Source: a virus | Reading direction: 5' to 3' (one strand) | UHGV virus genome: UHGV-0189314 | DNA length: 27,150 nucleotides | In this document: positions 3,995 to 26,666 of the stretch, piece by piece | Layout of the letters: each line of letters begins with the position of its first letter | Position numbering within the stretch: position 1 is the first letter of the stretch | Notes under the pieces: generated by a model | What the model was told of the DNA's origin: nothing | The model's database searches: none | The model's input: only the letters and a program-made list of their open reading frames with translations | Program-made: the position numbers and the translations under genes

Positions 3995-5882
3995 TATGAT
4001 GCTCGCCGTCACAACCGCATTACAGCCACTGATAAGGGCACTGCCGGTGACGCCGGTTGAGTGGGCTGATCAAAATTATTATCTGCCCAAAGAGTCGTCA
4101 TACGGTGAGGGGGAATGGAAAACCCTGCCGTTCCAGGTCGCCATCATGAACAGCATGGGTAATGACCGGATCCGTACTGTTAATCTGATTAAATCAGCGC
4201 GCGTGGGTTATACCAAAATGCTGTTGGGCGTGATCGGGTATTTTATTGAGCATAAATCCCGTAGCAGTCTGCTTTTTCAGCCGACAGATTCTGCAGCTGA
4301 AGATTTTATGAAAGCGCATGTGGAAGCTACATTGCGGGATGTTCCCTGCCTTAAAGCGTTGTCTCCATGGCTGGGCAAAAAACATCGTGACAACACGCTC
4401 ACTCTGAAGCGTTTTTCCTCCGGTGTGGGGTTCTGGTGCCTGGGCGGTGCCGCAGCTAAAAACTACCGTGAAAAATCTGTGGATGTGGTCTGCTATGACG
4501 AACTCTCCTCGTTTGAACCGGATGTGGAAAAAGAAGGCTCGCCGACGCTGCTTGGCGATAAACGTATCGAAGGCTCGGTATGGCCTAAATCCATACGCGG
4601 CTCAACGCCAAAAATTAAAGGCTCCTGCCAGATTGAGAAAGCCGCGAATGAATCTGCGCATTTCATGCGGTTTTATGTCCCTTGCCCTCATTGCGGGAAG
4701 GCCCAGTATCTGAAGTTTGGCGATGATGCGACGCCGTTTGGCCTGAAATGGGATAAGGGTAAACCGGAAACGGTGTATTACCTGTGTGAACATAATGGCT
4801 GTGTGATCCGGCAGTCGGAACTTGACCAGAGCGACGGACGCTGGATTTGTGACAATACCGGGATGTGGACGCGTGATGGCCTTACATTTTACAGCGCCGG
4901 TGATGAGGAGATACCGCCACCGCGCTCAGTCACGTACCACGTGTGGACAGCGTACAGTCCGTTCACCACCTGGGTGCAGATTATCTACGACTGGCTGGAT
5001 GCGCTGAAGGACCCGAACGGCGTCAAGACGTTTATTAATACCACGCTCGGGGAGCCCTATGAAGAGGCTGTGGCAGAAAAACTGAGCTTTGAGTTGTTGC
5101 TGGAAAAAGTCTGCCACTATGGTGCGCAGGTTCCCCTGCGGGTGGTTTACCTTACCGCCGGGATCGACTCCCAGAAAGATCGCTATGAAATTTATGTCTG
5201 GGGCTGGGCTCCCGGCGAAGAAGCCTTTCTGATTGATAAGCAAATTATCATGGGGCGACCGGAAGACGAGGACACCCTGAAACGTGTTGATACGGTGATC
5301 CGGAAAAAATACCGCCATGCTGACGGTACTGAAATTTCCATTTCCCGCGTCTGCTGGGATACCGGTGGTATCGACCAGGACATTGTGTATCAGCGTTCCA
5401 GAAAACACGGCACTTTTTTTGTGCTTCCCATAAAAGGGGCATCGGTGTACGGCAAGCCGGTGATCACCATGCCCAAAAAGCGCAACCAGCGTGGCGTGTT
5501 TCTGTGTGAGGTGGGTTCCGACACCGTCAAGGAAATGCTGTATGCCCGTTTTGCCCTGCCGGTGGTTCCTGCCAGTGAAGCCGCTCCGTATACCTTCCGT
5601 TTTCCGGATAACCCGGACATTTTTTCGGAAGAAGAAGCACGTCAAATCGTGGCGGAAGAACTGGTGGAAAAGGTGGTTAATGGCAGGGTGAAACTGCTGT
5701 GGGATAAAAAAGGGCGACGCAACGAAGCCCTCGACTGCCTGGTATATGCCTATGCTGCCCTGCGTATTTCAGTACAACGATGGCAACTGGACCTTGAGGC
5801 ACTGGCCAGGGCACGAAGAGACGAGCAGGATGAGGATGATATGAGTCTGGAAGAAATTGCGGCTGCACTGAGTGGAGGATAA
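3966..5882 (+). CDS. A: Terminase large subunit (lambda gpA-like)
   Basis: Near-colinear match to lambda gpA throughout (MNISRQQ..., EWADQNYYLPKES, WCLGGAAAKNYREKSVDVVCYDEL, YVPCPHCG, VYGKP, RRNEALDC). Start at ATG 3966, not the ORF-track 3930. Confidence 0.95.
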   Translation: MNISRQQLNNMMLAVTTALQPLIRALPVTPVEWADQNYYLPKESSYGEGEWKTLPFQVAIMNSMGNDRIRTVNLIKSARVGYTKMLLGVIGYFIEHKSRSSLLFQPTDSAAEDFMKAHVEATLRDVPCLKALSPWLGKKHRDNTLTLKRFSSGVGFWCLGGAAAKNYREKSVDVVCYDELSSFEPDVEKEGSPTLLGDKRIEGSVWPKSIRGSTPKIKGSCQIEKAANESAHFMRFYVPCPHCGKAQYLKFGDDATPFGLKWDKGKPETVYYLCEHNGCVIRQSELDQSDGRWICDNTGMWTRDGLTFYSAGDEEIPPPRSVTYHVWTAYSPFTTWVQIIYDWLDALKDPNGVKTFINTTLGEPYEEAVAEKLSFELLLEKVCHYGAQVPLRVVYLTAGIDSQKDRYEIYVWGWAPGEEAFLIDKQIIMGRPEDEDTLKRVDTVIRKKYRHADGTEISISRVCWDTGGIDQDIVYQRSRKHGTFFVLPIKGASVYGKPVITMPKKRNQRGVFLCEVGSDTVKEMLYARFALPVVPASEAAPYTFRFPDNPDIFSEEEARQIVAEELVEKVVNGRVKLLWDKKGRRNEALDCLVYAYAALRISVQRWQLDLEALARARRDEQDEDDMSLEEIAAALSGG

Positions 5883-5885
5883 GTG

Positions 5886-6095
5886 ATGATTTATACACAT
5901 GAGATGCTTTGCGAAGCGCGTCGGGCGCTGCATGAACTGATGATCGGGCGTGCTGTGGCTTCTGTCAGTAAGAACGGACGACAGGTACAGTATTCGCGGG
6001 CGACGATTAATGAATTACGGCGATATATTGAGGAAATTGAAAGTGCGCTTGGAATGTCCGGTCGTCGCCGTGGCCCTGCAGGAATACGACTGTGA
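5886..6095 (+). CDS. W: Head-tail joining protein (lambda gpW-like)
   Basis: ARRALHELMIGRAVASVSKNGRQVQYSRATINELRRYIEEIESALG...RRRGPAG matches lambda W ([28 protein letters not shown]...RRRGPAG). Alternative GTG start at 5883. Confidence 0.85.
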   Translation: MIYTHEMLCEARRALHELMIGRAVASVSKNGRQVQYSRATINELRRYIEEIESALGMSGRRRGPAGIRL

Positions 6096-7663
6096 GCGGG
6101 GGACTGGTGGATCTTCACGGACAACCTTTGCGGCAGAGTATGGGATATTCCGGCGGCGGCTCCGGATTCGGAGGGCAACTGGCTGAATGGTTGCCAGCAC
6201 CGGAAAGTGCCGATGTGGCGCTCTTACCTTCCATTCAGTTGGGTAACGCCCGTGCGGACGATCTGGTCCGTAACAACGGTATTGCCGCAAATGCTGTGGA
6301 AATTCATAAAGACCATATCGTCGGTCACATGTTTCGCCTGAGCTACCGACCCAACTGGCGCTGGCTGGGGATGTCAGAAGCTGATTCGCATGCCTTTATT
6401 GAAGATGTGGAGGCGGCGTGGGTGGAATATTGCGATCCGGTATTTGGTTCGATGGATGTGGAAGGGCGTCGCTCGTTTACCGAATTTATTCGTGAAGGGG
6501 TGGGCGTTCATACGTTTAACGGTGAAATTTTTGTCCAGCCCGTATGGGATACGGAATCCACGTCATTATTCAGAACAAAATTCAAGACCATCAGTCCGAA
6601 GCGCGTCAGCACGCCCGGTTATGGCATCGGCGATCGTTTTATGCGTGCCGGGGTGGAAATCAACCGGTACGGAAAAGCACTGGCCTACCATGTTCAGGAA
6701 GATGACTGGCCCGGTTACGGTGTCAGCAACTGGACACGGATTGCGGCGACGCTGCCCTCCGGGCGACCGGGAATGATCCATGTGTTTCAGCCGCAGGAAG
6801 ACGGACAGACGCGCGGGGCCAACCAGTTTTATTCCGTGATGGAGCGCCTCAAGATGCTCGACACACTGCAGGCCACGCAACTGCAGTCGGCGGTGGTGCG
6901 GGCGATGTATGCCGCGACGATTGAATCCACACTGGATTCGGAAAAAGCATTTGAATATATCGCCGGGGTGGGAGATGGCGGTAAAAATCCCCTGAACACC
7001 ATCATGAAAGGCTATGCGCGCTATTACGCCACCAATACGGTAAAGATGGGTGGGGTTCGTATTCCGCATCTTTATCCGGGGGATTCACTGAATCTGCAGA
7101 CAGCACAGAATGCGGATAATGGTTTCTCTGAACTGGAAAAGGCGCTGTTACGTTACATTGCTGCCGGACTGGGCGTGTCCTATGAGCAGCTTTCCCGCGA
7201 TTATTCACAGGTCAGTTATTCCAGTGCCAGAGCATCCGCCAATGAGTCGTGGCGGTATTTTATGGGGAAACGAAAATTTGTGGCCAGCCGACTGGCGTCA
7301 CAGATGTTTGCCTGCTGGCTGGAGGAAGCCCTTATTCGCGGTGTGATCCGCCCGCCGAAATCCCGTTTTTCATTCTGGGAGGCCCGTTCCGGATGGTGTC
7401 GTGCCGAGTGGATTGGTGCCGGTCGCATGGCAATTGATGGTCTTAAGGAAGTGCAGGAAGCGGTGATGCGTATTGAAGGTGGTTTAAGCACGTACGAGAA
7501 AGAGCTGGCCCTGATGGGCGATGACTATCAGGAGATTTTCCGCCAGCAACTGCGTGAAAGCCAGGAGCGACAGGCTGCGGGTCTTCCCCGCCCCATCTGG
7601 ATAAAGGACACGTTTCAGCAGCAGATCCGACAGACAACGGGAGAAAAAGGCGATGCGTCGTAA
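6092..7663 (+). CDS. B: Portal protein (lambda gpB-like)
   Basis: GTG start overlapping the W stop (GTGA). Long colinear identity to lambda gpB (GGGSGFGGQL, GNARADDLVRNNG, FRTKFKTISPKR, HVFQPQEDGQTRGANQFYSVMERLKMLDTLQ, SYEQLSRDYSQVSYSSARASANESW). Confidence 0.95.
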   Translation: MSGGLVDLHGQPLRQSMGYSGGGSGFGGQLAEWLPAPESADVALLPSIQLGNARADDLVRNNGIAANAVEIHKDHIVGHMFRLSYRPNWRWLGMSEADSHAFIEDVEAAWVEYCDPVFGSMDVEGRRSFTEFIREGVGVHTFNGEIFVQPVWDTESTSLFRTKFKTISPKRVSTPGYGIGDRFMRAGVEINRYGKALAYHVQEDDWPGYGVSNWTRIAATLPSGRPGMIHVFQPQEDGQTRGANQFYSVMERLKMLDTLQATQLQSAVVRAMYAATIESTLDSEKAFEYIAGVGDGGKNPLNTIMKGYARYYATNTVKMGGVRIPHLYPGDSLNLQTAQNADNGFSELEKALLRYIAAGLGVSYEQLSRDYSQVSYSSARASANESWRYFMGKRKFVASRLASQMFACWLEEALIRGVIRPPKSRFSFWEARSGWCRAEWIGAGRMAIDGLKEVQEAVMRIEGGLSTYEKELALMGDDYQEIFRQQLRESQERQAAGLPRPIWIKDTFQQQIRQTTGEKGDAS

Positions 7664-9269
7664 TTTATCGCATATTGCCGCCATGGCATTTAATGAGCCG
7701 CTTTTACTGGAGCCCGCCTATGCGCGGGTTTTCTTTTGCGCGCTGGGTAAAGAGATGGGGGCCGGAAGCCTTACCGTTCCTCAGCAGGCTGTTCAGCTTG
7801 ATGCTGATGGTATGCAACTGGCTGTGACTGACTATATGGCGGGCGGTCAGCGTCCGGCAAAGAGTTACCAGGTGAAGAATGGCATTGCCATTCTGCCGGT
7901 GAGCGGCACGCTGGTGCATAAACTGGGTACCCTGCGGCCTTACTCCGGCATGACAGGCTATGACGGTCTGACGGCCCGCCTTCAGATGGCGGTGAATGAT
8001 CCGGATGTGCGCGGCATTTTGCTGGATATCGACAGCCCGGGCGGTCAGGCTGCCGGGGCGTTTGACTGTGCTGACATGATTTACCGCCTGCGGGAACAGA
8101 AGCCCGTGTGGGCGCTGTGTAATGACATGGCCTGTTCAGCCGCCATGTTGCTGGCGGCAGCCTGTACGCGTCGGCTGGTCACGCAGACGGCAAAAATTGG
8201 TTCGATTGGTGTGATGATGGCGCACACCAGTTACGAGAAACAACTGGCACAGGAAGGGGTGGACATCACGCTGATTTACTCCGGGCAGCACAAGGTTGAC
8301 GGCAACAGTATTCAGGCATTGCCGGCAGGTGTGCGTGCAGATTTTCAGCGCCGTATTGATGAGGCCCGCCGGATGTTTGTCGACAAGGTGGCACGTTATA
8401 CGGGGCTGAGCGCTGAGGCGGTGATGAATACCGAAGCAGCCGTTTATGACGGTCAGGCAGGCATTGATGCAGGCCTGGCTGATCAACTGATTAATGCTGC
8501 AGATGCCGTTGAAGTGATGGTTTCTGCACTGAATGAATCTGTAACACAGGAGGAAACGATGACAGTTAAAAATCTCACCGTTGCTGAAGCGGTGGTCCAG
8601 GAAAATCAGCGCGTGATGGGGATCCTGAATTGTCAGGAGGCGAAAGGGCGCGAGCAACTGGCGCAAATGCTGGCAGGTCAGCCTGGAATGACGGTTGAGC
8701 AGGCGAAAACGTTGCTGGCTGCTGTGCCGGTTGCCGGTACTGACAGCACGGGTGATCAGATTATGGCGCTGCCGGAAGCAAAGGGGCGTGAGCAACTGGC
8801 ACAGATGCTGGCAGGTCAACCGGGGATGACGGTGGCGCAGGCGAAAGCGTTTCTGGCGGCAGCCCCTGCTGCCGGTGCTGCAGGCACAGGCGAACAGATT
8901 ATGGCGTTACCAGAAGCAAAAGGGCGTGAACAACTCGCGCAGGCGCTGGCTGAACAGCCGGGAATGACCGTTGACCAGGCCAAAACGTTACTGGCGGCGG
9001 CACCGGTTGCGGGTTCTGCAAGTGTCGGCGAACAGATTATGGCGCTGCCGGAGGCGAAAGGGCGCGAACAACTTGCACAGGCACTGACAGAACAGCCAGG
9101 AATGACGGTGGCGCAGGCGAAAACGCTGCTGGCAGCCGCGCCGGCGGCATCGCAACCGTCACAGGAAACACTTTTTGATCGCTTTATGGCACAGCATGCT
9201 GCCAGTGCGGTTTCCGGTGGCGGAACTGCCGGGCGCGGGGAGGAAGACCTGCTGATGAGTATGCCGTAA
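7653..9269 (+). CDS. C: Head maturation protease / scaffold (lambda gpC-like, S49 family) with repeat-expanded C-terminal domain
   Basis: N-terminal ~300 aa match lambda C / ClpP-like S49 protease; the C-terminal ~230 aa consist of four 46-aa tandem repeats. Start overlaps the portal stop. Confidence 0.9.
   Translation: MRRNLSHIAAMAFNEPLLLEPAYARVFFCALGKEMGAGSLTVPQQAVQLDADGMQLAVTDYMAGGQRPAKSYQVKNGIAILPVSGTLVHKLGTLRPYSGMTGYDGLTARLQMAVNDPDVRGILLDIDSPGGQAAGAFDCADMIYRLREQKPVWALCNDMACSAAMLLAAACTRRLVTQTAKIGSIGVMMAHTSYEKQLAQEGVDITLIYSGQHKVDGNSIQALPAGVRADFQRRIDEARRMFVDKVARYTGLSAEAVMNTEAAVYDGQAGIDAGLADQLINAADAVEVMVSALNESVTQEETMTVKNLTVAEAVVQENQRVMGILNCQEAKGREQLAQMLAGQPGMTVEQAKTLLAAVPVAGTDSTGDQIMALPEAKGREQLAQMLAGQPGMTVAQAKAFLAAAPAAGAAGTGEQIMALPEAKGREQLAQALAEQPGMTVDQAKTLLAAAPVAGSASVGEQIMALPEAKGREQLAQALTEQPGMTVAQAKTLLAAAPAASQPSQETLFDRFMAQHAASAVSGGGTAGRGEEDLLMSMP
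8559..9269 (+). CDS. nu3: Putative nested in-frame scaffolding protein (lambda Nu3 analogue)
   Basis: Internal in-frame ATG at 8559 preceded by strong RBS CAGGAGGAAACG. In lambda, Nu3 is translated from an internal start in the 3' part of C. Inference by analogy. Confidence 0.45.
   Translation: MTVKNLTVAEAVVQENQRVMGILNCQEAKGREQLAQMLAGQPGMTVEQAKTLLAAVPVAGTDSTGDQIMALPEAKGREQLAQMLAGQPGMTVAQAKAFLAAAPAAGAAGTGEQIMALPEAKGREQLAQALAEQPGMTVDQAKTLLAAAPVAGSASVGEQIMALPEAKGREQLAQALTEQPGMTVAQAKTLLAAAPAASQPSQETLFDRFMAQHAASAVSGGGTAGRGEEDLLMSMP
8628..9180 (+). repeat. Four tandem copies of a 138-bp (46-codon) coding repeat inside the C/Nu3 scaffold domain
   Basis: The EAKGRE-encoding codons recur at 8637, 8775, 8913 and 9051 (period exactly 138 bp). 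Peptide units: (Q)EAKGREQLAQ[M/A]LA[G/E]QPGMTV[E/A/D]QAK[T/A][L/F]LAA[V/A]P[V/A]AG...[D/E]QIMALP; copies are diverged, not identical. Confidence 0.85.
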
Positions 9270-9307: not shown

Positions 9308-9643
9308 ATGATTAAAACCACCACGGAAAATCGCGCGGATGTGCATATTTTTGCCGGAAGCGATCCGGCGCATACTGCAACCGCCACCAGTGGTATCAGT
9401 GCTGCCACGCCTGCACTGACGCCACTGATGCTGGATGACGCCACCGGTAAACTGGTGGCATGGGATGGTCAGAAAGCCGGAACGGCAGTGGGCGTGCTGG
9501 CTCTGGCGCTTACCGGAACAGAACCCACGCTGACGTACTACAAAAGCGGTACGTTTGCCACTGAGTCGCTGGTCTGGCCTGACTCTGTGGATGCGGCGAA
9601 AAAAGCCAACGCATTTGTGGGAAGTGCCATCAGCCACGCCTGA
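9308..9643 (+). CDS. D: Head decoration protein (lambda gpD-like)
   Basis: SDPAHTATA...PALTPLMLD...KLVAWDG...YKSGTF matches lambda D ([26 protein letters not shown]...KLVAWDG...YKSGTF). RBS AGGAG upstream. Confidence 0.9.
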
Positions 9644-9711: not shown

Positions 9712-10740
9712 ATGGGGTTATTTACCACGCGTCAGTTACTCGGGTACACCGAGCAGAAAGTGAAATTTCGTGCGCTGTTTCTGGAGCTGTTTTTTCGTCG
9801 CACGATCACTTTCCATACTCAGGAAGTGATGCTGGATAAAATTACCGGCAAAACACCGGTTGCGGCGTATGTGTCTCCGGTGGTGTCAGGCAAAGTGCTG
9901 CGCAGCCGTGGTGGTGAAACCCGCGTGTTACGTCCCGGTTATGTAAAACCAAAACACCGCTTTGATTATCAGCAGGCAGTGGAACGTCTTCCGGGGGAAG
10001 ATCCGGCCCGTCTTAATGACCCTGCCTACCGCCGCCTGCGTATTCTGACGGACAACCTGAAGCAGGAAGAGCAGGCGATTGTGCAGGTGGAAGAAATGCA
10101 GGCGGTCAGTGCCGTTCTGCAGGGTAAGTACACCATGAGCGGGGAACAGTTTGAGACGGTGGAAGTGGATTTTGGGCGCTCTGCCGCCAATAACATTACG
10201 CAGGCTGGCGGACGCGAATGGTCACAGCAGAATGCTGACACCTTTGATCCAACGCACGATCTGGATGCGTACTGCGATTTTGCCTCCGGGACCATCAATA
10301 TCGCGATTATGGATGGCACGGTCTGGCGTATGCTGAATGGCTTTAAGCTTTTCCGTGAAAAACTGGATACCCGTCGTGGTTCAAAATCGGAACTGGAAAC
10401 CGCGCTGAAAGATCTGGGCTCCGTGGTCTCTTTTAAGGGGTATTACGGTGATCTGGCTATTGTGGTGGCGAAAACCGCTTACGTCGATGAAAACGGGGAT
10501 GAACAGCGTTATCTGCCGGAAGGCACACTGATTCTGGGGAACACTCAGGCAGAAGGTGTTCGTTGCTATGGGGCTATTCAGGATAACCAGGCGCTGAGTG
10601 AAGGGATCACCTCTGCAATTCGTTATCCAAAACACTGGCTGGAGGTGGGTGATCCTGGTTGCGAATATACCATGACGCAGTCTGCGCCGTTGATGGTGTT
10701 GCCGGATCCTGACGCGTTTGTGGTGGTTCAGGTGAAATAA
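9712..10740 (+). CDS. E: Major capsid protein (lambda gpE-like)
   Basis: Colinear with lambda E: FLELFFRR, YVSPVVSGKVLRSRGG, PGYVKPKH, DPAYRRLRI, QVEEMQAVSAVLQGKYTMSGE, EKLDTRRGSKSELETA, GNTQAEG, TMTQSAPLMVL. Confidence 0.95.
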   Translation: MGLFTTRQLLGYTEQKVKFRALFLELFFRRTITFHTQEVMLDKITGKTPVAAYVSPVVSGKVLRSRGGETRVLRPGYVKPKHRFDYQQAVERLPGEDPARLNDPAYRRLRILTDNLKQEEQAIVQVEEMQAVSAVLQGKYTMSGEQFETVEVDFGRSAANNITQAGGREWSQQNADTFDPTHDLDAYCDFASGTINIAIMDGTVWRMLNGFKLFREKLDTRRGSKSELETALKDLGSVVSFKGYYGDLAIVVAKTAYVDENGDEQRYLPEGTLILGNTQAEGVRCYGAIQDNQALSEGITSAIRYPKHWLEVGDPGCEYTMTQSAPLMVLPDPDAFVVVQVK

Positions 10741-14713: not shown

Positions 14714-15296
14714 CGATATCAGGAGCATACTGCCGGTCAGTGCCAGCCGGGCAGAGCGGGTGGTGGACTGTGTCGCCGGAGATATGCTGTCAGATATAGC
14801 GGTCTGCCTGATCCGCTATGTGAAAAATCCCGATTTATGTCCTGCTGAATTGCTGCCATGGCTGGCCTGGGAAATGGCGGTGGACACCTGGAATGAACAC
14901 TGGACGGAGACGGAAAAAAAGTCTGCGATAAAACGTGCTGCTTACATCCACCGCCACAGAGGGACTAAAGCGGCGCTGATGGCATCGCTGGCTGACAGTC
15001 CCTTCCGGTCGCAGATTGTTGAGTGGTATGAGCAGACCCCACCCGGGGAGCCGTATACCTTTCGTTTGAACGTGGAGCAGAAGGATTTACCGGTGCTGAT
15101 GAATGATCATCAGGATCTGAAGCATGCGGTACTCCGTGCCAAAAATCTGCGTAGCTGGTTCAGTATTCACGTTTACGGGAACAGCACAGGGCGGGGATTT
15201 GGTTACGGTTATGTGATGGCGACAGAAAAAATCAGAAGTAACGGTGTGATAACAAAGACAGTGCCCACTGGCGGGCAGAGTGAGGCAGGAGTATGA
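14706..15296 (+). CDS. I: Baseplate / tail protein I (P2 gpI-like)
   Basis: NPDLCPAELLPWLAWEMAVDTWNEHW matches P2 I (NPDTCPANLLPWLAWAFSVDRWDEKW); start overlaps the J stop. Confidence 0.85.
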   Translation: MNDDIRSILPVSASRAERVVDCVAGDMLSDIAVCLIRYVKNPDLCPAELLPWLAWEMAVDTWNEHWTETEKKSAIKRAAYIHRHRGTKAALMASLADSPFRSQIVEWYEQTPPGEPYTFRLNVEQKDLPVLMNDHQDLKHAVLRAKNLRSWFSIHVYGNSTGRGFGYGYVMATEKIRSNGVITKTVPTGGQSEAGV

Positions 15297-16552
15297 ATGG
15301 ACTGATTCTGACAACGTCCGGCACTGCAGAAATTGAAGCAGCATATCAGAACGGGCAAACCGTGACCGTCCGGCATGTTCTGCTTGGTGACGGGGGCGGG
15401 CAGGCATTGCCATCCACGCCGGATGAAATGGCAGCAATGACATCATTGTACGGCGAATTTGGGCAGGAACCCTTTTCCGACGGTGCGGTGGAGGAGGGCT
15501 TCATCAGCGGGGATATTGTGATTGACTGTAAATCATACCCCGGTAAAACCCTTCGTGAACTGGGTATAATTAGCGACAGCGGTACGCTTATCGCGTACGG
15601 ACGTTATCCGGACACCTTTTTACCAGACCAGACGGACTCTGTTATCAAGGAAGTTATTCTGACGCTGGTTCTTGGGCTGACGCACGCACAAAACGTGGTG
15701 CTGGAAGTTGATCCGGACAGGGCCATTATTACTCAGGAAATCGGAGACAGACGCTATCTGCAACGAAAAAAGAATCTTTCGGATGTGGAAGACAAGGATG
15801 AGGCTGTTAAAAACCTCGGATTAAAATCCACGGTGGACAAGGCAAAAAATGCCGTTCAGCGTGATGGTGACACCATGACCGGGGATCTGAAAATCCGTGG
15901 TGTTAATGCGCTGAGGATTTTCAACGAAGCCTTTGGTCTGATTTTTCGTCGTTCGGAAGAGTGCCTGCACCTTATCCCTACCAGTGAAGGTCAGGGCGAG
16001 AATGGCGATATTGGTCCACTTCGCCCGTTCACTATTAATCTGCGGACGGGTGAAATATCCATGTCGCATAAAGTGTCTATTGGCGGTGGTTCGCAGGTCA
16101 ATGGTGCGCTGGGTATCGGCGTTCAGAATGCCTTGGGCGGTAACTCAATTGCTTTCGGGGATAACGATACTGGCCTGAAACAGAATGGTGATGGCCTGCT
16201 GGATGTTTATGCCAATAGCGTGCATGTGTTGCGTTTTCAGAGTGGCAGTATCCAGAGTAATAAAGCTGTAAACGTTACAGGACGGGTAACACCGTCAGAC
16301 TACGGAAACTTTGATGCCCGTTACCAGACCAAAACAGGCGGCGTGCAGGATGTGCGTTATGGTTCCGAAATGTATTACACCCCGGGAGGTAACCAGATAT
16401 CCTGGACATTTCGCTCACCTTCAGGCCACGGGTTATCCGGTATTAATGTGCAGGAAACCGGAAGTAATTCGGCGGATAACATCGGCGGTGTGTATTACCG
16501 ACCGCTTCAGAAACTGATTAACGGTACCTGGTATAACGTGGCGAGTGTTTAA
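15293..16552 (+). CDS. H: Tail fibre protein (P2 gpH-like)
   Basis: C-terminal ALGGNSIAFGDNDTGLKQNGDGLLDVYANS ... GNFDARY ... YRPLQKLINGTWYNVASV matches P2 H (ALGGSSIVLGDNDTGFKQNGDGILDVYANS ... FDSRY ... FRPIQKYINGTWYNVAQV). Confidence 0.9.
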   Translation: MNGLILTTSGTAEIEAAYQNGQTVTVRHVLLGDGGGQALPSTPDEMAAMTSLYGEFGQEPFSDGAVEEGFISGDIVIDCKSYPGKTLRELGIISDSGTLIAYGRYPDTFLPDQTDSVIKEVILTLVLGLTHAQNVVLEVDPDRAIITQEIGDRRYLQRKKNLSDVEDKDEAVKNLGLKSTVDKAKNAVQRDGDTMTGDLKIRGVNALRIFNEAFGLIFRRSEECLHLIPTSEGQGENGDIGPLRPFTINLRTGEISMSHKVSIGGGSQVNGALGIGVQNALGGNSIAFGDNDTGLKQNGDGLLDVYANSVHVLRFQSGSIQSNKAVNVTGRVTPSDYGNFDARYQTKTGGVQDVRYGSEMYYTPGGNQISWTFRSPSGHGLSGINVQETGSNSADNIGGVYYRPLQKLINGTWYNVASV

Positions 16553-17097: not shown

Positions 17098-17112
17098 AAA
17101 AAGTGAATCAAC

Positions 17113-17137
17113 AAACCGCCTTGAGGGCGGTTTTTTT
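17113..17137 (+). terminator. Intrinsic terminator (AAACCGCC-TTGAG-GGCGGTTT + T7) between tfa and sheath
   Basis: 6-8-bp stem and T-tract 17131-17137, ending 14 nt before the sheath ATG; matches the P2 operon boundary between G and FI. Confidence 0.6.
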
Positions 17138-17150
17138 ATGGGAGAGATGT

Positions 17151-18626
17151 ATGTCCGGACTACATGGTGTTGAAACCATTGAACTGACAACAGGTACGGT
17201 CGCCGTGCAGACCATCTCCACGGCAGTGGTTGGTCTGGTGGGGACTGCTCCGGATGCCTCTGGTGGTGTGTGTGCTTCCGGTACAGCCGGTTCGTGGCTG
17301 CTGGGAACGGCGCTGGATTTTACGGCGAAACAGGAGGGCCGGGCCGGCAATAAGATTTCGGTGGTTGCTGTCGCGGCCACAGAACAAAGCGCGCAGACCA
17401 CGGCCTCGCTGGAAGGTACAACCCTGACGATAACGCTGGGGACGGATGAGCACAGCCAGGTTAACGCCACGGTGGAGCGTGTGACTGAAGTGGTGAATGC
17501 ACTGGGTGATTCACCTGTGACGGCGGCAGTCAGTACCCTGAATGCAGGGGGCGCTGAAAATAATGTGGTGTCGCCGTTCAGCCTGACGTTATCCGGCGGG
17601 GAGGATGAGGCGTTCCCGGTCAATACACCGGTGGTGGTGGCAGGGGCCATTACTCAGGCCGGGAAACTGGGCTCAGCCGGGACATTATATCCGGCCCTGC
17701 GTGATATTTTTGACCAGACCGGTGCGCTGGTGATTGTGGTGCGTGCGGAAAGCAAAACAAAGGCGAAAGAGGCCGAACAGCGTGCGGCGGTGATTCAGGC
17801 CATGGAGGCGCTGACAGAAAGTAAGGGCGTCACGGGCTATCAACCGCGCATCCTCATTGCCACGGGGTACAGTGAGGATGATGGCGTGGCAAAGGCGCTG
17901 GAAACGTATGCCGCGAAGCTGCGGGCCGTGGCCTATATCGACTCTCCCTCAATGGCAACGCCGCAGGATGTGGTTCAAAGGCGCGCATCCTTTGGCGGGC
18001 GCGTGGAGCTGCTGCGCCCGCGCGTGTCAGTAACGGATGACAGCGGGCAGACGGTATTTCGTCCATATTCGGCTCGTGCTGCCGGGCTGCGTGCCCGTAT
18101 TGATTATGAAAAAGGGTGGTGGTGGTCCAAATCAAACCAGGACGTGATGAATATCACCGGTCTGGAGCAGGTGGACACGTTTATTCTCGGGGAGCAGAAC
18201 TGCACAGCAAACCTGCTGAACATGGAAAATATCTCCACCATTATTCGCCATGACGGTTTTAAACACTGGGGTAACCGTCTGTGCACATCCCACAGTCAGT
18301 GGCGCTTTGAACCGGTACGCCGTACTGCAGATGTGATTGAGGACAGTATCCAGGAGGCCATGCTGCCTTATGTCGATCGCCCGCTGGATCGTGATGTGGC
18401 GGACGACATTCTTGGCAGTATTAATGCCTATATGCGTCAGCTTAAAAATCTGGGCGCGATCCACGGTGGCAGTGCCTGGCTGAATGATGAACTGAACACA
18501 GCAGAAACCCTGGCCGCCGGGCAGTTGTATATCGATTATGACTTTGGGCCGAAGTCACCACTGGAGCGCCTGACACTGCGGGCGATGATTAACAATAAAC
18601 TGGCGCTGGAGGAGCTGACGGTATGA
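17151..18626 (+). CDS. FI: Contractile tail sheath protein (P2 gpFI-like) with an extra ~120-aa insertion
   Basis: N-terminus MSGLHGVETIEL..VQTISTAVVGLVGTAPDA and C-terminal LGLRARIDYEKGWWWSKSN...IIRHDGFKHWGNR...TAETLAAGQLYIDYDFGPKSPLERLTLRAMI match P2 FI. RBS GGAGAG then ATG 17151; the ORF-track start at 17103 would include the terminator. Confidence 0.95.
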   Translation: MSGLHGVETIELTTGTVAVQTISTAVVGLVGTAPDASGGVCASGTAGSWLLGTALDFTAKQEGRAGNKISVVAVAATEQSAQTTASLEGTTLTITLGTDEHSQVNATVERVTEVVNALGDSPVTAAVSTLNAGGAENNVVSPFSLTLSGGEDEAFPVNTPVVVAGAITQAGKLGSAGTLYPALRDIFDQTGALVIVVRAESKTKAKEAEQRAAVIQAMEALTESKGVTGYQPRILIATGYSEDDGVAKALETYAAKLRAVAYIDSPSMATPQDVVQRRASFGGRVELLRPRVSVTDDSGQTVFRPYSARAAGLRARIDYEKGWWWSKSNQDVMNITGLEQVDTFILGEQNCTANLLNMENISTIIRHDGFKHWGNRLCTSHSQWRFEPVRRTADVIEDSIQEAMLPYVDRPLDRDVADDILGSINAYMRQLKNLGAIHGGSAWLNDELNTAETLAAGQLYIDYDFGPKSPLERLTLRAMINNKLALEELTV

Positions 18627-23061: not shown

Positions 23062-24279
23062 ATGTCTGTATTAATTTCGGGTGTGCTGACGGATGGTGCG
23101 GGACTCCCCATGTCCGGATACCATATTATTCTGAAAGCCCGACAGAATACATCCGCAGTGGTTATGAGAACGGTGGCAACAGTGGTGACAGGGCCGGCAG
23201 GAGAATATGCATTTGAGGCTCAAACCGGAATATATGATGTTTATCTTCGTTCGTGTATTGAAAGAGAATATTGTGTCGGTGATATTTGGGTTTACGACGA
23301 TTCTAGGCCCGGTACACTGAATGATTTTCTGACCGCTCTCGATGAGGGCGACTTGAAACCGGATGTGGTGAAACGCTTCGAAGAAATGTTGGCGCAGGCG
23401 CAGCAGAGCGCGGAAGCGGCAGCGGAAAGCGAACGACAGTCCGGGCAACACGCAGCTGATGCGCAGAAGATTAAGGATGATTGCCAGATGCTGGCGGATA
23501 ACGTACAGCAGAATGCAGAAGCCGTTGCCGAAGATAAACAACGCGTTGAACATCTGGCCTCAGAAGTTGAGTTGAACGCTGGGCAGGTGCAGCAGAGTAT
23601 TACAGATGCAGTAAAGCAGGCTCAACAGGTAGCAGATGACGCTGCATCCAGTGCCGAGGAATCAAAGAACAATGCGCAGGAAGCAAAACAGTACAGGGAT
23701 GAGGCACAACAGATTATTGATAGTCTGAATGCAACAAATGCCACCACAATGGATAAAGGGCTGGTGCAACTGTGTAGTGATACGGACAACGACACCGAGG
23801 AGCTGGCTGCTACGCCAAAGGCAGTCAAAGCCGTCATGGATGAGGTTAAGGGAAAAGCGCCGCTGGACAGCCCTGCGTTCACTGGCATGCCAACCACCCC
23901 CACCCCTTCGCAGGATGCGTCCGGTTGTGAAATTGTAAATGCTGAATTTGTTCGGGCATTGATTGCTGCAACGTCATCAGGTTCGTATTCAACCGATTCA
24001 GTGGTTCCGCTGGTAATTAATGGTGCACAACTCCAGTCCGCTCATCAGAGCAGTGGACCACTGGTGATAAACAAGGTGCAATTTCAGCACGTCCGTCAGA
24101 CCAGAACCAATGCCCCCCTGGTGGTCAACAAAGCACTGATCCAGTCCGCTCATCAGAGCAGTGGACCACTGGTGATTAACAAGGCGCAACTTCAGCACGG
24201 TCGTCAGGCCAGAACCAACGGCCCCCTGGTGGTTAACCGTATGGGGTTGAGTTTTGCATTCGTTACCCCTTTGCAATGA
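23062..24279 (+). CDS. Second tail fibre: lambda-Stf-like N-terminus, coiled-coil region, repeat-containing C-terminus
   Basis: N-terminus MSVLISGVLTDGAGLPMSGYHIILKARQNTSAVV...VYDDSRPGTLNDFL matches the lambda Stf / prophage tail-fibre N-terminal domain (MAVKISGVLKDGTGKPVQNCTIQLKA...VYEDSQPGTLNDFL). Middle GLVQLCSDTDNDTEELAATPKAVKAVMDEVKGKAPLDSPAFTGMPTTPT matches the conserved fibre motif also in P2 H. Confidence 0.8.
   Translation: MSVLISGVLTDGAGLPMSGYHIILKARQNTSAVVMRTVATVVTGPAGEYAFEAQTGIYDVYLRSCIEREYCVGDIWVYDDSRPGTLNDFLTALDEGDLKPDVVKRFEEMLAQAQQSAEAAAESERQSGQHAADAQKIKDDCQMLADNVQQNAEAVAEDKQRVEHLASEVELNAGQVQQSITDAVKQAQQVADDAASSAEESKNNAQEAKQYRDEAQQIIDSLNATNATTMDKGLVQLCSDTDNDTEELAATPKAVKAVMDEVKGKAPLDSPAFTGMPTTPTPSQDASGCEIVNAEFVRALIAATSSGSYSTDSVVPLVINGAQLQSAHQSSGPLVINKVQFQHVRQTRTNAPLVVNKALIQSAHQSSGPLVINKAQLQHGRQARTNGPLVVNRMGLSFAFVTPLQ
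24007..24240 (+). repeat. Near-identical tandem coding repeat (2 x 108 bp plus a partial third) at the C-terminus of the Stf-like fibre
   Basis: Copies at 24007-24114 and 24115-24222 differ at only a few positions; each encodes PLV[I/V]N-x-(A/V)Q-x-Q-SAHQSSG / PLVIN-K-x-Q-x-QH-x-RQ-x-RTN. Also generates the antisense artefact ORF 23998-24276. Confidence 0.75.
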
Positions 24280-25886: not shown

Positions 25887-26666
25887 TTATATAAGAGTGT
25901 TTTGCAGCCAGTTTTTTATCGTTATATTGACTTCCTTTGCGTGAGTAATATTTAGAGCATGATTAGCGTCGGGAATGACTTCAAGCTTAGAATGTGCAAT
26001 CATTTTGTGCATTTGAATTGCTTTCTCCAAAGATATCCCCGTATCTCTGGCACCATGAATAATCAGGGTGGGGGTTGTGATTATCTGGATTCTTTCTGAA
26101 ATGTCGTCGCGCTCCAGCATTGCATTCATGGCATTTCTGATGTTTTCAGGCTTATGGCCTAGCCATACTTGTCTCCATGTCTCTGCTTCAGAAATATTAT
26201 TTCCGAAAAAAACGGGTAATAATGAGGAAATTATATTTTCCTTTATGATTGGGTCTTGCCATCCATCACATAACTCCATGTAACTGGAAGCGATTTCTGG
26301 CGGATCCTGCTCTGCCTGAGTTGCCATAAGGATTAACCCTGATAAACGTTCCGAATGTGAAAGAGCAAATCGTAAAGATATATATCCGCCCATTGACATC
26401 CCCCCTAAAACAAACTTATCTAGTTGTAGTAAGTCTGCAACCATTAAAATATCATCGACGATATCATAGAGCGAGAATGCTTCTGTTTTTTCACTGTTTT
26501 TATCAAACCCCCGAACATTAATACAAACAACTCTGTGTTTTTCTTTTAGTTCGTCAAGCTGATATTTAAACATTTCATTATTCATGAAAAATCCATGAAC
26601 GAATATTACAGGGGGATTGTTTTTATTTGTTTCAGTGTATCCAGAATCAGTAAACGTAAAATTCAT
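25887..26666 (-). CDS. Alpha/beta-hydrolase-fold protein (esterase/lipase-type serine hydrolase), low-GC cargo gene
   Basis: HGFF oxyanion-hole motif, nucleophile elbow GGMSMGG (G-x-S-x-G), acidic residue in HGARDTG, and His in DANHALN in the canonical order Ser-Asp-His. RBS GGAGGG upstream of the minus-strand ATG. Strongly AT-rich codon usage unlike the phage structural genes. Confidence 0.8.
   Translation of the reverse strand: MNFTFTDSGYTETNKNNPPVIFVHGFFMNNEMFKYQLDELKEKHRVVCINVRGFDKNSEKTEAFSLYDIVDDILMVADLLQLDKFVLGGMSMGGYISLRFALSHSERLSGLILMATQAEQDPPEIASSYMELCDGWQDPIIKENIISSLLPVFFGNNISEAETWRQVWLGHKPENIRNAMNAMLERDDISERIQIITTPTLIIHGARDTGISLEKAIQMHKMIAHSKLEVIPDANHALNITHAKEVNITIKNWLQNTLI

Follow-up and report, generated by a model that had tools for sequence, protein, structure and literature searches.

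What does a fourfold repeat do in the 3′ third of a prohead protease gene, and is it a property of the protease or of a scaffold encoded within it? The question is raised by a stretch of 27,150 nucleotides from the virus genome UHGV-0189314, the whole of which is here called the window, and by the gene at 7653-9269 in it, whose 538-amino-acid (aa) product joins a protease of the lambda gpC type to a C-terminal part built from tandem copies of a 46-aa module. A preliminary description of the window had placed four in-frame 46-aa repeats at 8628-9180, in the C-terminal third of a gpC homologue, and had suggested that an internal start at 8559 could yield a nested Nu3-like scaffold. The account that we consider probable is that the gene gives rise to two products, that the repeat units are equivalent binding modules which render the scaffold multivalent in cis, and that their copy number is loosely constrained.

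The array was recovered by several approaches. Tandem Repeats Finder reported a single array at 8636-9144 with a period of 138, 3.7 copies, 78% matches, 1% indels and a score of 550, and an independent seed-extension repeat search yielded three 236-nt copies at a spacing of 138/138 nt. Identity at a lag of 138 over 8613-9188 was 0.703, as against 0.268 ± 0.038 at other lags (z = 11.6), and the highest lag identity reached in 1000 codon shuffles was 0.44. The array is in frame within 7653-9269 and occupies the 3′ third of the gene, with a unit of 138 nt or 46 aa. A hidden Markov model (HMM) of the unit detected four units in the 538-aa protein, at aa 324-366, 367-410, 413-457 and 459-503. The DNA register of the units was set to begin with the short head helix, which places the array overall at 8616-9164. 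The preliminary span was thus right to about 15 nt, the four in-frame repeats were borne out by Tandem Repeats Finder, the lag test and the unit HMM, and the consensus that had been quoted for them (EAKGREQLAQ.LA.QPGMTV.QAK.LLAA.P...QIMALP) agrees with the translation. The pattern of the Nu3 module, h-h-x-C-x-EAxGRE-x-LA-x-x-LA-x-x-PGMT-x-x-x-A-x-x-x-L-A-A-A-P, is present four times according to the HMM, and in the PHROG comparison the profiles phrog_8399 (head scaffolding) and phrog_8940 (capsid assembly protein) each matched in four stretches. The features of the gene are as follows, with local confidence of the AlphaFold2 models given as the predicted local distance difference test (pLDDT).

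7653-9269, plus strand: gpC-type prohead protease/scaffold fusion gene, 538 aa, the only long open reading frame (ORF) of the region.
8088-8522, plus strand: S49 peptidase domain, aa 146-290 (Pfam PF01343, Peptidase_S49, E = 3.4e-34).
8548-8553, plus strand: Shine-Dalgarno (SD) sequence AGGAGG for the putative nested scaffold gene, with a 5-nt spacer to the ATG at 8559.
8559-9269, plus strand: nested in-frame Nu3-like scaffold ORF, 236 aa with a calculated mass of ~24 kDa, from Met303 of the long product to the stop.
8559-8615, plus strand: N-terminal helix region of the nested scaffold, MTVKNLTVAEAVVQENQRV, predicted by AlphaFold2 as a helix at residues 8-23 (pLDDT ~85) and conserved in homologues.
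8616-8750, plus strand: repeat unit 1, MGILNCQ-EAKGREQLAQMLAGQPGMTVEQAKTLLAAVP-VAGTDST, placed by the HMM match at aa 324-366 and by alignment; the unit held in common with lambda.
8751-8888, plus strand: repeat unit 2, HMM match at aa 367-410; it has a 99% nt-identical orthologue in OkiPb01676 and is missing from the otherwise 98% identical allele L057.
8889-9026, plus strand: repeat unit 3, HMM match at aa 413-457; core 100% nt-identical to unit 4 of STEC308.
9027-9164, plus strand: repeat unit 4, HMM match at aa 459-503; core 100% nt-identical to unit 5 of STEC308.
9165-9266, plus strand: non-repeated C-terminal tail, opening with the partial unit head ETLFDRFM and closing with the conserved LLMSMP, of low pLDDT.

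In unit 4 the core is kept, but the place of the linker is taken by the beginning of the tail, whose motifs F-D/E-x-F-M and LLMxxP are conserved over the three- and four-unit homologues in the alignment. Partial unit heads are present at both edges of the array, unit 1 being preceded by ENQRVMGILNCQ and unit 4 followed by ETLFDRFM; this is the kind of flanking similarity that permits unequal exchange. A minus-strand ORF of 227 aa at 8136-8819 was dismissed as a by-product of the GC-rich repeat, as the pattern of synonymous and non-synonymous differences fits the plus frame.

The identity of the gene as a gpC homologue, already proposed in the preliminary description, was upheld by the E value of its S49 domain and by its position between a lambda-family portal gene and homologues of gpD and gpE:

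6092-7663: portal protein of the lambda family (gpB family; PF05136), upstream of the protease gene and ending in overlap with it.
9308-9643: gpD-like decoration protein (PF02924), downstream of the protease gene.
9712-10740: major capsid protein of the gpE family (PF03864), 342 aa, downstream of the protease gene.

The rest of the head module is likewise present in the window as Nu1, gpA, FI and FII-like genes. The 538-aa product matched phrog_53, "head maturation protease", with E = 2.7e-216, and was 61% identical to phage 21 gp5 over the whole protein and 54% identical to lambda gpC. Its Ser162, which lies within a CSAA motif, was aligned to lambda Ser166, which Medina and co-workers are said to have identified as the catalytic residue in 2010. 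By homology the gene thus belongs to the protease-scaffold genes of the lambda gpC/Nu3 type, all defining features that can be tested in a sequence having been found. The window shares 99.9% identity with a prophage in strain 16F5M1D1 of E. coli O8:H8 (NZ_AP019856.1, around 4.7487-4.7504 Mb); the RefSeq label of the gene there reads "S49 family peptidase" only.

The closest described counterpart is found in phage 21, for whose gp5/gp6 the source publication is reportedly that of Smith and Feiss in 1993. The GenBank record M81255.1 of this phage carries three repeat_region features in gene 6, the Nu3 homologue, which are named "Tri1 box", "Tri box" and "Tri3 box" and annotated as "function unknown; putative". 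Expressed as residues 324-358, 371-407 and 418-455, these boxes coincide with the matches of the unit HMM in phage 21 gp5 at 321-360, 368-411 and 415-458. A repeat-built scaffold is therefore less novel than the preliminary description had implied; the four-copy array is real, but the same repeat had already been annotated in phage 21 as the three Tri boxes. Phage 21 gp5/gp6 and the window gene are alike in gene family, in head-operon position, in a nested start with a ribosome-binding site (RBS) and in the 46-aa module that is tandemly repeated in frame within the nested scaffold, but phage 21 has three units and not four. The units of phage 21 are 52-61% identical to one another and position-orthologous with those of Gifsy-1 (84% between the second units of the two), whereas the window units are 84-94% identical and are each other's nearest relatives. 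Only unit 1 of the window has a clear counterpart in phage 21 (74%), identity to the second and third phage 21 units being 52-65%, and position-orthology to units 1-3 of the three-copy arrays of phage 21 and Gifsy-1 was not found for the window array. As the window units are nearest to each other, it follows that the four-unit array arose or was homogenised in the lineage of the window itself.

In lambda gpC/Nu3 one unit and no more, ENSRIMGILNCEEAHGREEQARVLAETPGMTVKTARRILAAAP, was found both by the HMM and by alignment, which matched the window protein to aa 357-405 of lambda gpC; lambda therefore has no repeat array, as had been stated in the preliminary description. The two systems share the S49 protease with its serine motif, an in-frame nested scaffold with SD and Met, and the D and E genes downstream. 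They differ in that the single lambda unit follows an N-terminal low-complexity stretch of about 48 aa which the window protein does not have, and the lambda capsid protein is 46% identical to that of the window.

Across 1.84 billion representative proteins, the unit profile matched 1784 at E ≤ 1e-3 and 235 at E ≤ 1e-10. Among the best 150 proteins, 134 had one unit, 13 had two and 3 had three, and the unit occurred in protease fusions (at least 380 aa) as well as in shorter proteins. With one genome taken per species, 23 of 28 loci were single-unit, including those of Alphaproteobacteria, Vibrio, Leptospira, Desulfarculus and Bryobacter, and the five three-unit loci were all from Enterobacterales (E. 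coli, Shigella, E. albertii, Trabulsiella and Providencia). Judged from these profile matches, it is the 46-aa unit that forms the conserved core in scaffolds of the Nu3 type; it is nearly always single-copy, and arrays are largely confined to Enterobacterales, with independent duplications elsewhere.

Within the relatives of the window, copy number was found to vary, as the preliminary description had thought it might: 1, 2, 3, 4 and 5 units were observed, the series running from lambda (1) through phage 21 and Gifsy-1 (3) and the window (4) to STEC308 (5). The best 80 loci in IMG/VR comprised two with 2 units, 31 with 3, 46 with 4 and one with 5. A gpC-like match, mostly of the phage 21 type, was present in 2021 of 5426 complete E. 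coli genomes, and 106 complete E. coli genomes carried a tail of the window type. An identical five-unit allele was present in 9 of these 106, a set of Shiga toxin-producing E. coli (STEC) isolates, and most of the others were exactly 138 nt shorter. Four units are thus prevalent in the window lineage, in about 95 of the 106 E. coli genomes and in 46 of the 80 best IMG/VR loci. E. coli STEC719 (NZ_CP041411.1) carries a four-unit allele (93% identical) and a five-unit allele in two different prophages, which gives scope for recombination between arrays inside one host.

Outside this lineage further arrays were observed. The 469-aa protein P0133, an S49 protease fusion of a non-enterobacterial lineage, has two units that are 71% identical and separated by a PTPPTPPTPP linker; to judge by its sequence, the module was duplicated here independently, and the linker between the copies is of a different chemistry. 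In Bradyrhizobium (GCA_054057095.1, L010:5001-5492) a genuine stand-alone protein of 163 aa, P0083, has two Nu3-type units. Its neighbours are a small-terminase-like gene (phrog_57), an 842-aa tape measure and unassigned ORFs of 70, 297 and 105 aa; within 5 kb neither an S49 protease nor a portal nor any recognisable capsid gene was found. A very divergent head module is one possible reading of the locus, another being a satellite or an element resembling a gene transfer agent which has its own scaffold. The two-unit arrays of P0133 and of the Bradyrhizobium proteins pair with themselves, indicating that they arose by independent duplication. Database entries for the gene are, moreover, often damaged within the repeat: P0015 and P0074 have frameshifts inside the array, P0039 and P0040 a 19-aa in-frame deletion in unit 2, and P0045 is a chimera of a TrmD-like N-terminus (PF01746) and a three-unit tail. 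Such entries probably reflect faulty assembly or sequencing of repeated DNA, or else stem from pseudogenes.

The age of the copies in the window was apparent from their divergence. The 93-nt unit cores are 76-82% identical at the nucleotide level, and the differences between them are mostly synonymous, 10-16 of about 19 lying at codon position 3. In pairwise comparisons the synonymous divergence (dS) was 0.6-1.8 and the ratio of non-synonymous to synonymous divergence (dN/dS) 0.02-0.17. High dS together with low dN/dS indicates that the four copies are old paralogues, each of which is under strong purifying selection. Orthologues of the single units were identified in other prophages, unit 1 corresponding to unit 1 of STEC308 (96%), unit 2 to unit 2 of OkiPb (99%), and units 3 and 4 to units 4 and 5 of STEC308. 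More recent changes were also seen; STEC308 has a recent extra unit, and the four units of A34 are 95-98% identical in DNA and have been homogenised. In the VG35A2 sublineage, the alleles with 2 (L064/L065), 3 (L062), 4 (VG35A2) and 5 (L053) units are distinguished solely by how many exact copies they have of the middle unit; L057, in turn, corresponds to the window allele without unit 2. Frame, internal start and tail are preserved in all these length alleles. The 2-, 3- and 5-unit alleles sit beside a 100% identical capsid protein and the 4-unit allele beside a 99% identical one, which argues that copy number is not a determinant of capsid geometry; going by these alleles, it appears to be only loosely constrained. 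The suggestion in the preliminary description that the repeats could set the length or valency of the scaffold, in a way that matters for function, stays a conjecture.

The same observations are what would be expected if one unit were functional and the others were tolerated redundancy, that is, by-products of unequal recombination in a repeat-prone flexible region that act as spacer at most and whose number is without consequence. Near-identical phages with 2-5 units and hardly differing capsid proteins agree with this explanation, as do the recent exact duplications in L053, STEC308 and A34, and a single unit suffices for lambda and most of the family. The explanation nevertheless sits poorly with window units that are old and yet have every core held under strong purifying selection, and with the existence of a 95-100% identical orthologue of each of them in other prophages. 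Phage 21 and Gifsy-1, moreover, retain their three position-orthologous units across genera, four units dominate the lineage of the window in both collections, and duplications occurred independently in distant lineages. We therefore regard redundancy of all units but one as unlikely, although it is the most serious competitor of the account in which the units are equivalent binding modules.

That account also includes a scaffold that is made separately from the protease. The perfect arrangement AGGAGG-N4-8-ATG occurs once in the 27-kb window, both strands counted, at 8548-8561, but 1.02 occurrences are expected by chance, so that its presence alone is no proof of a nested start. It would be in keeping with this figure, and with the RefSeq annotation of the gene as an S49 family peptidase alone, that there is no separate scaffold, that the repeats are the C-terminal domain of the full-length protease only, for instance as a procapsid tether, and that the internal SD and ATG are incidental. 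Comparison with homologues makes such a single-product gene improbable. The ATG at 8559 lies at the place homologous to the annotated start of phage 21 gene 6 (Met302, with RBS) and to lambda Met309, and Met with an SD-like purine tract is kept at this position in phage 21, Gifsy-1, lambda and every E. coli and IMG/VR allele examined. The residues encoded around it, on the other hand, vary (QEET, RGGT, TGGT, EDKN, QENT, REVN and SGGR). As the SD-like tract and the Met are conserved while the encoded residues differ, a 236-aa Nu3-like scaffold is very probably made from ATG 8559, in agreement with the in-frame internal RBS and ATG that the preliminary description had pointed out. Nested genes are, in addition, annotated in the records of both phage 21 and lambda, and the overlap of C and Nu3 in lambda is established genetics, reportedly going back to Shaw and Murialdo in 1980.

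The start annotated for lambda differs from the conserved one. In NC_001416.1 (L009 1177-1782) the RefSeq nu3 begins at gpC residue 239 (5132..5737) and not at Met309 (tcaggagggcgaATG). The codon equivalent to lambda Met239 has no SD in relatives, and the conserved SD-like tract is found at Met309 instead, indicating that Met309 is the conserved start and that the nested-gene annotations of lambda and phage 21 are not homologous starts. Among "stand-alone" database homologues of 135-200 aa, at least P0017 proved to be a contig-edge truncation called from an internal Met and not a separate gene, and this group was not used as evidence of nested expression.

Structure prediction with AlphaFold2 of the nested scaffold, from a 22-sequence alignment, gave a mean pLDDT of 70.7 and a predicted template modelling score of 0.28. 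Each unit was modelled as three helices, of 6 (DQIMAL), 8 (REQLAQML) and 10 residues (TVEQAKTLLA), with the loop AGQPGM between the second and the third and pLDDT of 70-86. The linkers of Ala, Gly, Ser and Thr and the tail had pLDDT below 60, and no fixed packing between units was predicted. A single unit modelled with a diverse alignment of 21 units gave the same three helices, at residues 3-6, 14-21 and 28-37 (pLDDT 69), so that one repeat is predicted to form a small helical hairpin, close to the helix-turn-helix-like shape about which the preliminary description had asked. No related solved structure was found, either by profile search of the PDB with the sequence or by fold. The PDB profile matches were designed tandem-repeat proteins which share a G-V/M-S/T-x-E-Q-A-x-x-I-L helix N-cap motif, and Arl3 (E = 0.05), and were judged to be due to chance.

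The resemblance of LAxQPGMTVxQAKxLL to the helix-hairpin-helix (HhH) pattern hxxhxGhGxxxAxxhh raised the further idea that the units are nucleic-acid-binding motifs and the array a DNA-binding domain instead of a scaffold. Similarity to T2SSK (SAM/HhH-like) and to the N-terminus of HU in Pfam points in this direction, as does a match to phrog_379, "DNA binding protein" (E = 3.5e-4). The Pfam similarities were weak and below threshold for each stretch, however, no stretch passed on its own in either these or the PHROG match, and no HhH structure was among the fold matches of the unit; the idea was rejected as very improbable. Least probable of all is a role of the repeat at the DNA or RNA level, as regulatory sites, recombination hot spot or structured RNA with the protein repeat being secondary, since, although pattern-based CII-binding sites are marked inside gene 6 in a recent phage 21 record, third codon positions carry most unit differences while the peptide is conserved, as is typical of constraint on protein and not on nucleotides, the CII pattern TTGYN6TTGY does not occur in the array and shows no enrichment over the whole window (3 against 5.5 expected), and an Rfam scan found nothing in the array region.

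For the binding-module account, which we prefer, the following course of events is proposed. As in lambda and phage 21, two products would be formed, a minor full-length protease-scaffold fusion and a 236-aa scaffold translated from the SD and ATG at 8548-8561, which by analogy with these phages would be abundant. Each unit would fold into a short head helix followed by a helix-loop-helix, and the flexible linkers between units would arrange them like beads on a string, as the models suggest. Four cores that have been held almost the same despite saturated synonymous divergence most likely bind the same partner surface. The units would accordingly be functionally equivalent and contact one partner in the procapsid, which might be the major capsid protein and/or the portal, or other scaffold chains. 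One chain would thereby be multivalent in cis and could take the role that is played in P22-type scaffolds by an oligomerised single C-terminal hook; the unit would then correspond, in Nu3-type scaffolds, to the hook of P22, or it would serve self-association instead. A candidate for an alternative capsid-binding element is the conserved tail (F-D/E-x-F-M ... LLMSMP). Once the shell has assembled, the co-assembled S49 protease would degrade the scaffold, which would leave before DNA packaging. Gain and loss of units would come about through unequal recombination from one unit to another, or through slippage.

To our knowledge, there is no structure for Nu3, and the shell contacts of lambda-type scaffolding proteins are poorly defined. 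For lambda Nu3, interactions with B, C and E and with itself have been reported (PMC3224144). In P22 the C-terminal helix-turn-helix hook of the scaffold, of about 36 residues, binds transiently to coat and portal, and the scaffold works as oligomers (PMC12005531). The likeness to scaffolds of the P22 gp8 type is one of functional analogy only and lies in the small helix-loop-helix hook of about 30-36 residues and in the need for multivalency; no relationship to the coat-binding domain of P22 gp8 was detected by sequence or fold searches. In P22, multivalency is achieved by oligomerised chains with one hook each and the scaffold is recycled, whereas the copies of the window module lie in cis on one chain and the fused S49 protease presumably degrades the scaffold.

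Fusion of a protease to a scaffold in one gene is known from other phages. In P2, gpO consists of an N-terminal protease and a C-terminal helical scaffolding domain encoded by a single gene. The T1-like prohead proteases resemble the window gene in the same way, a single gene encoding the N-terminal protease and the helical scaffolding domain at the C-terminus (bioRxiv 10.1101/2023.05.21.541620). Unlike the window gene, the P2 and T1-like fusions involve other protease families, and neither a tandem array nor a nested start is reported for them in the accessible texts.

The surroundings of the gene are those of a mosaic prophage, in which the head and packaging genes form a complete module of the lambda type (Nu1, gpA, portal, C/Nu3, D, E, FI and FII-like) that is joined, over window positions 3449-25473, to a contractile-tail module with the following genes:

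15293-16552: tail-collar fibre.
17103-18626: tail sheath.
23062-24279: tail fibre with phage_tail_N.

A tRNA gene (Rfam RF00005, 64.9 bits) is located at the very start of the window, at positions 7-78; the small ORFs come after it and are followed by the terminase genes. After the tail-fibre genes, an alpha/beta-hydrolase gene is encoded on the minus strand at 25887-26666 (PF00561, E = 1e-28); it is probably host DNA or a cargo gene that marks the end of the prophage structural region.

A repeated Nu3 module is not in itself new, having been annotated in phage 21 since the early 1990s. For this reason the understanding of head assembly remains unchanged, and the four-unit array is an ordinary but variable member of a known phage scaffold family which will hold little surprise for specialists. 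What is new are the four- and five-copy alleles, the recognition of the module as the usually single-copy core of the family, the selection on each copy, and the occurrence in nature of alleles with 1-5 units beside a constant capsid protein. For annotation, the results show that such genes are labelled only "S49 family peptidase", that the nested scaffold gene is missed in RefSeq prophages and that frameshift or partial calls are frequent in the repeat.

A wider interpretation, which we put forward tentatively and think rather doubtful, is that all Nu3-type scaffolds bind capsid and portal through this unit as their elementary hook and that its repetition in cis is adaptive because it raises valency, with possible consequences for immune sensing. 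The interpretation is supported by the recurrent independent duplications in Enterobacterales, in Bradyrhizobium and in P0133, together with the strong purifying selection on every copy. More speculative still is the idea that switching of copy number alters the sensing of the protease-scaffold complex by defence systems such as the cyclic oligonucleotide-based antiphage signalling system (CBASS). Sensing of prohead proteases or scaffolds by CBASS-type defence has been described for T4- and T1-type proteases only, and this literature holds no data on S49 or lambda-type proteins (PMC12991175; bioRxiv 10.1101/2023.05.21.541620). A single 46-aa module as the conserved scaffold element, together with alleles of 1-5 copies, offers an experimental handle for binding studies and for a valency series. 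If the adaptive interpretation is true, the series of 1-5 units on a near-identical head module would be a system in which scaffold valency could be related to nucleation rate, fidelity and stoichiometry in the T=7 procapsid.

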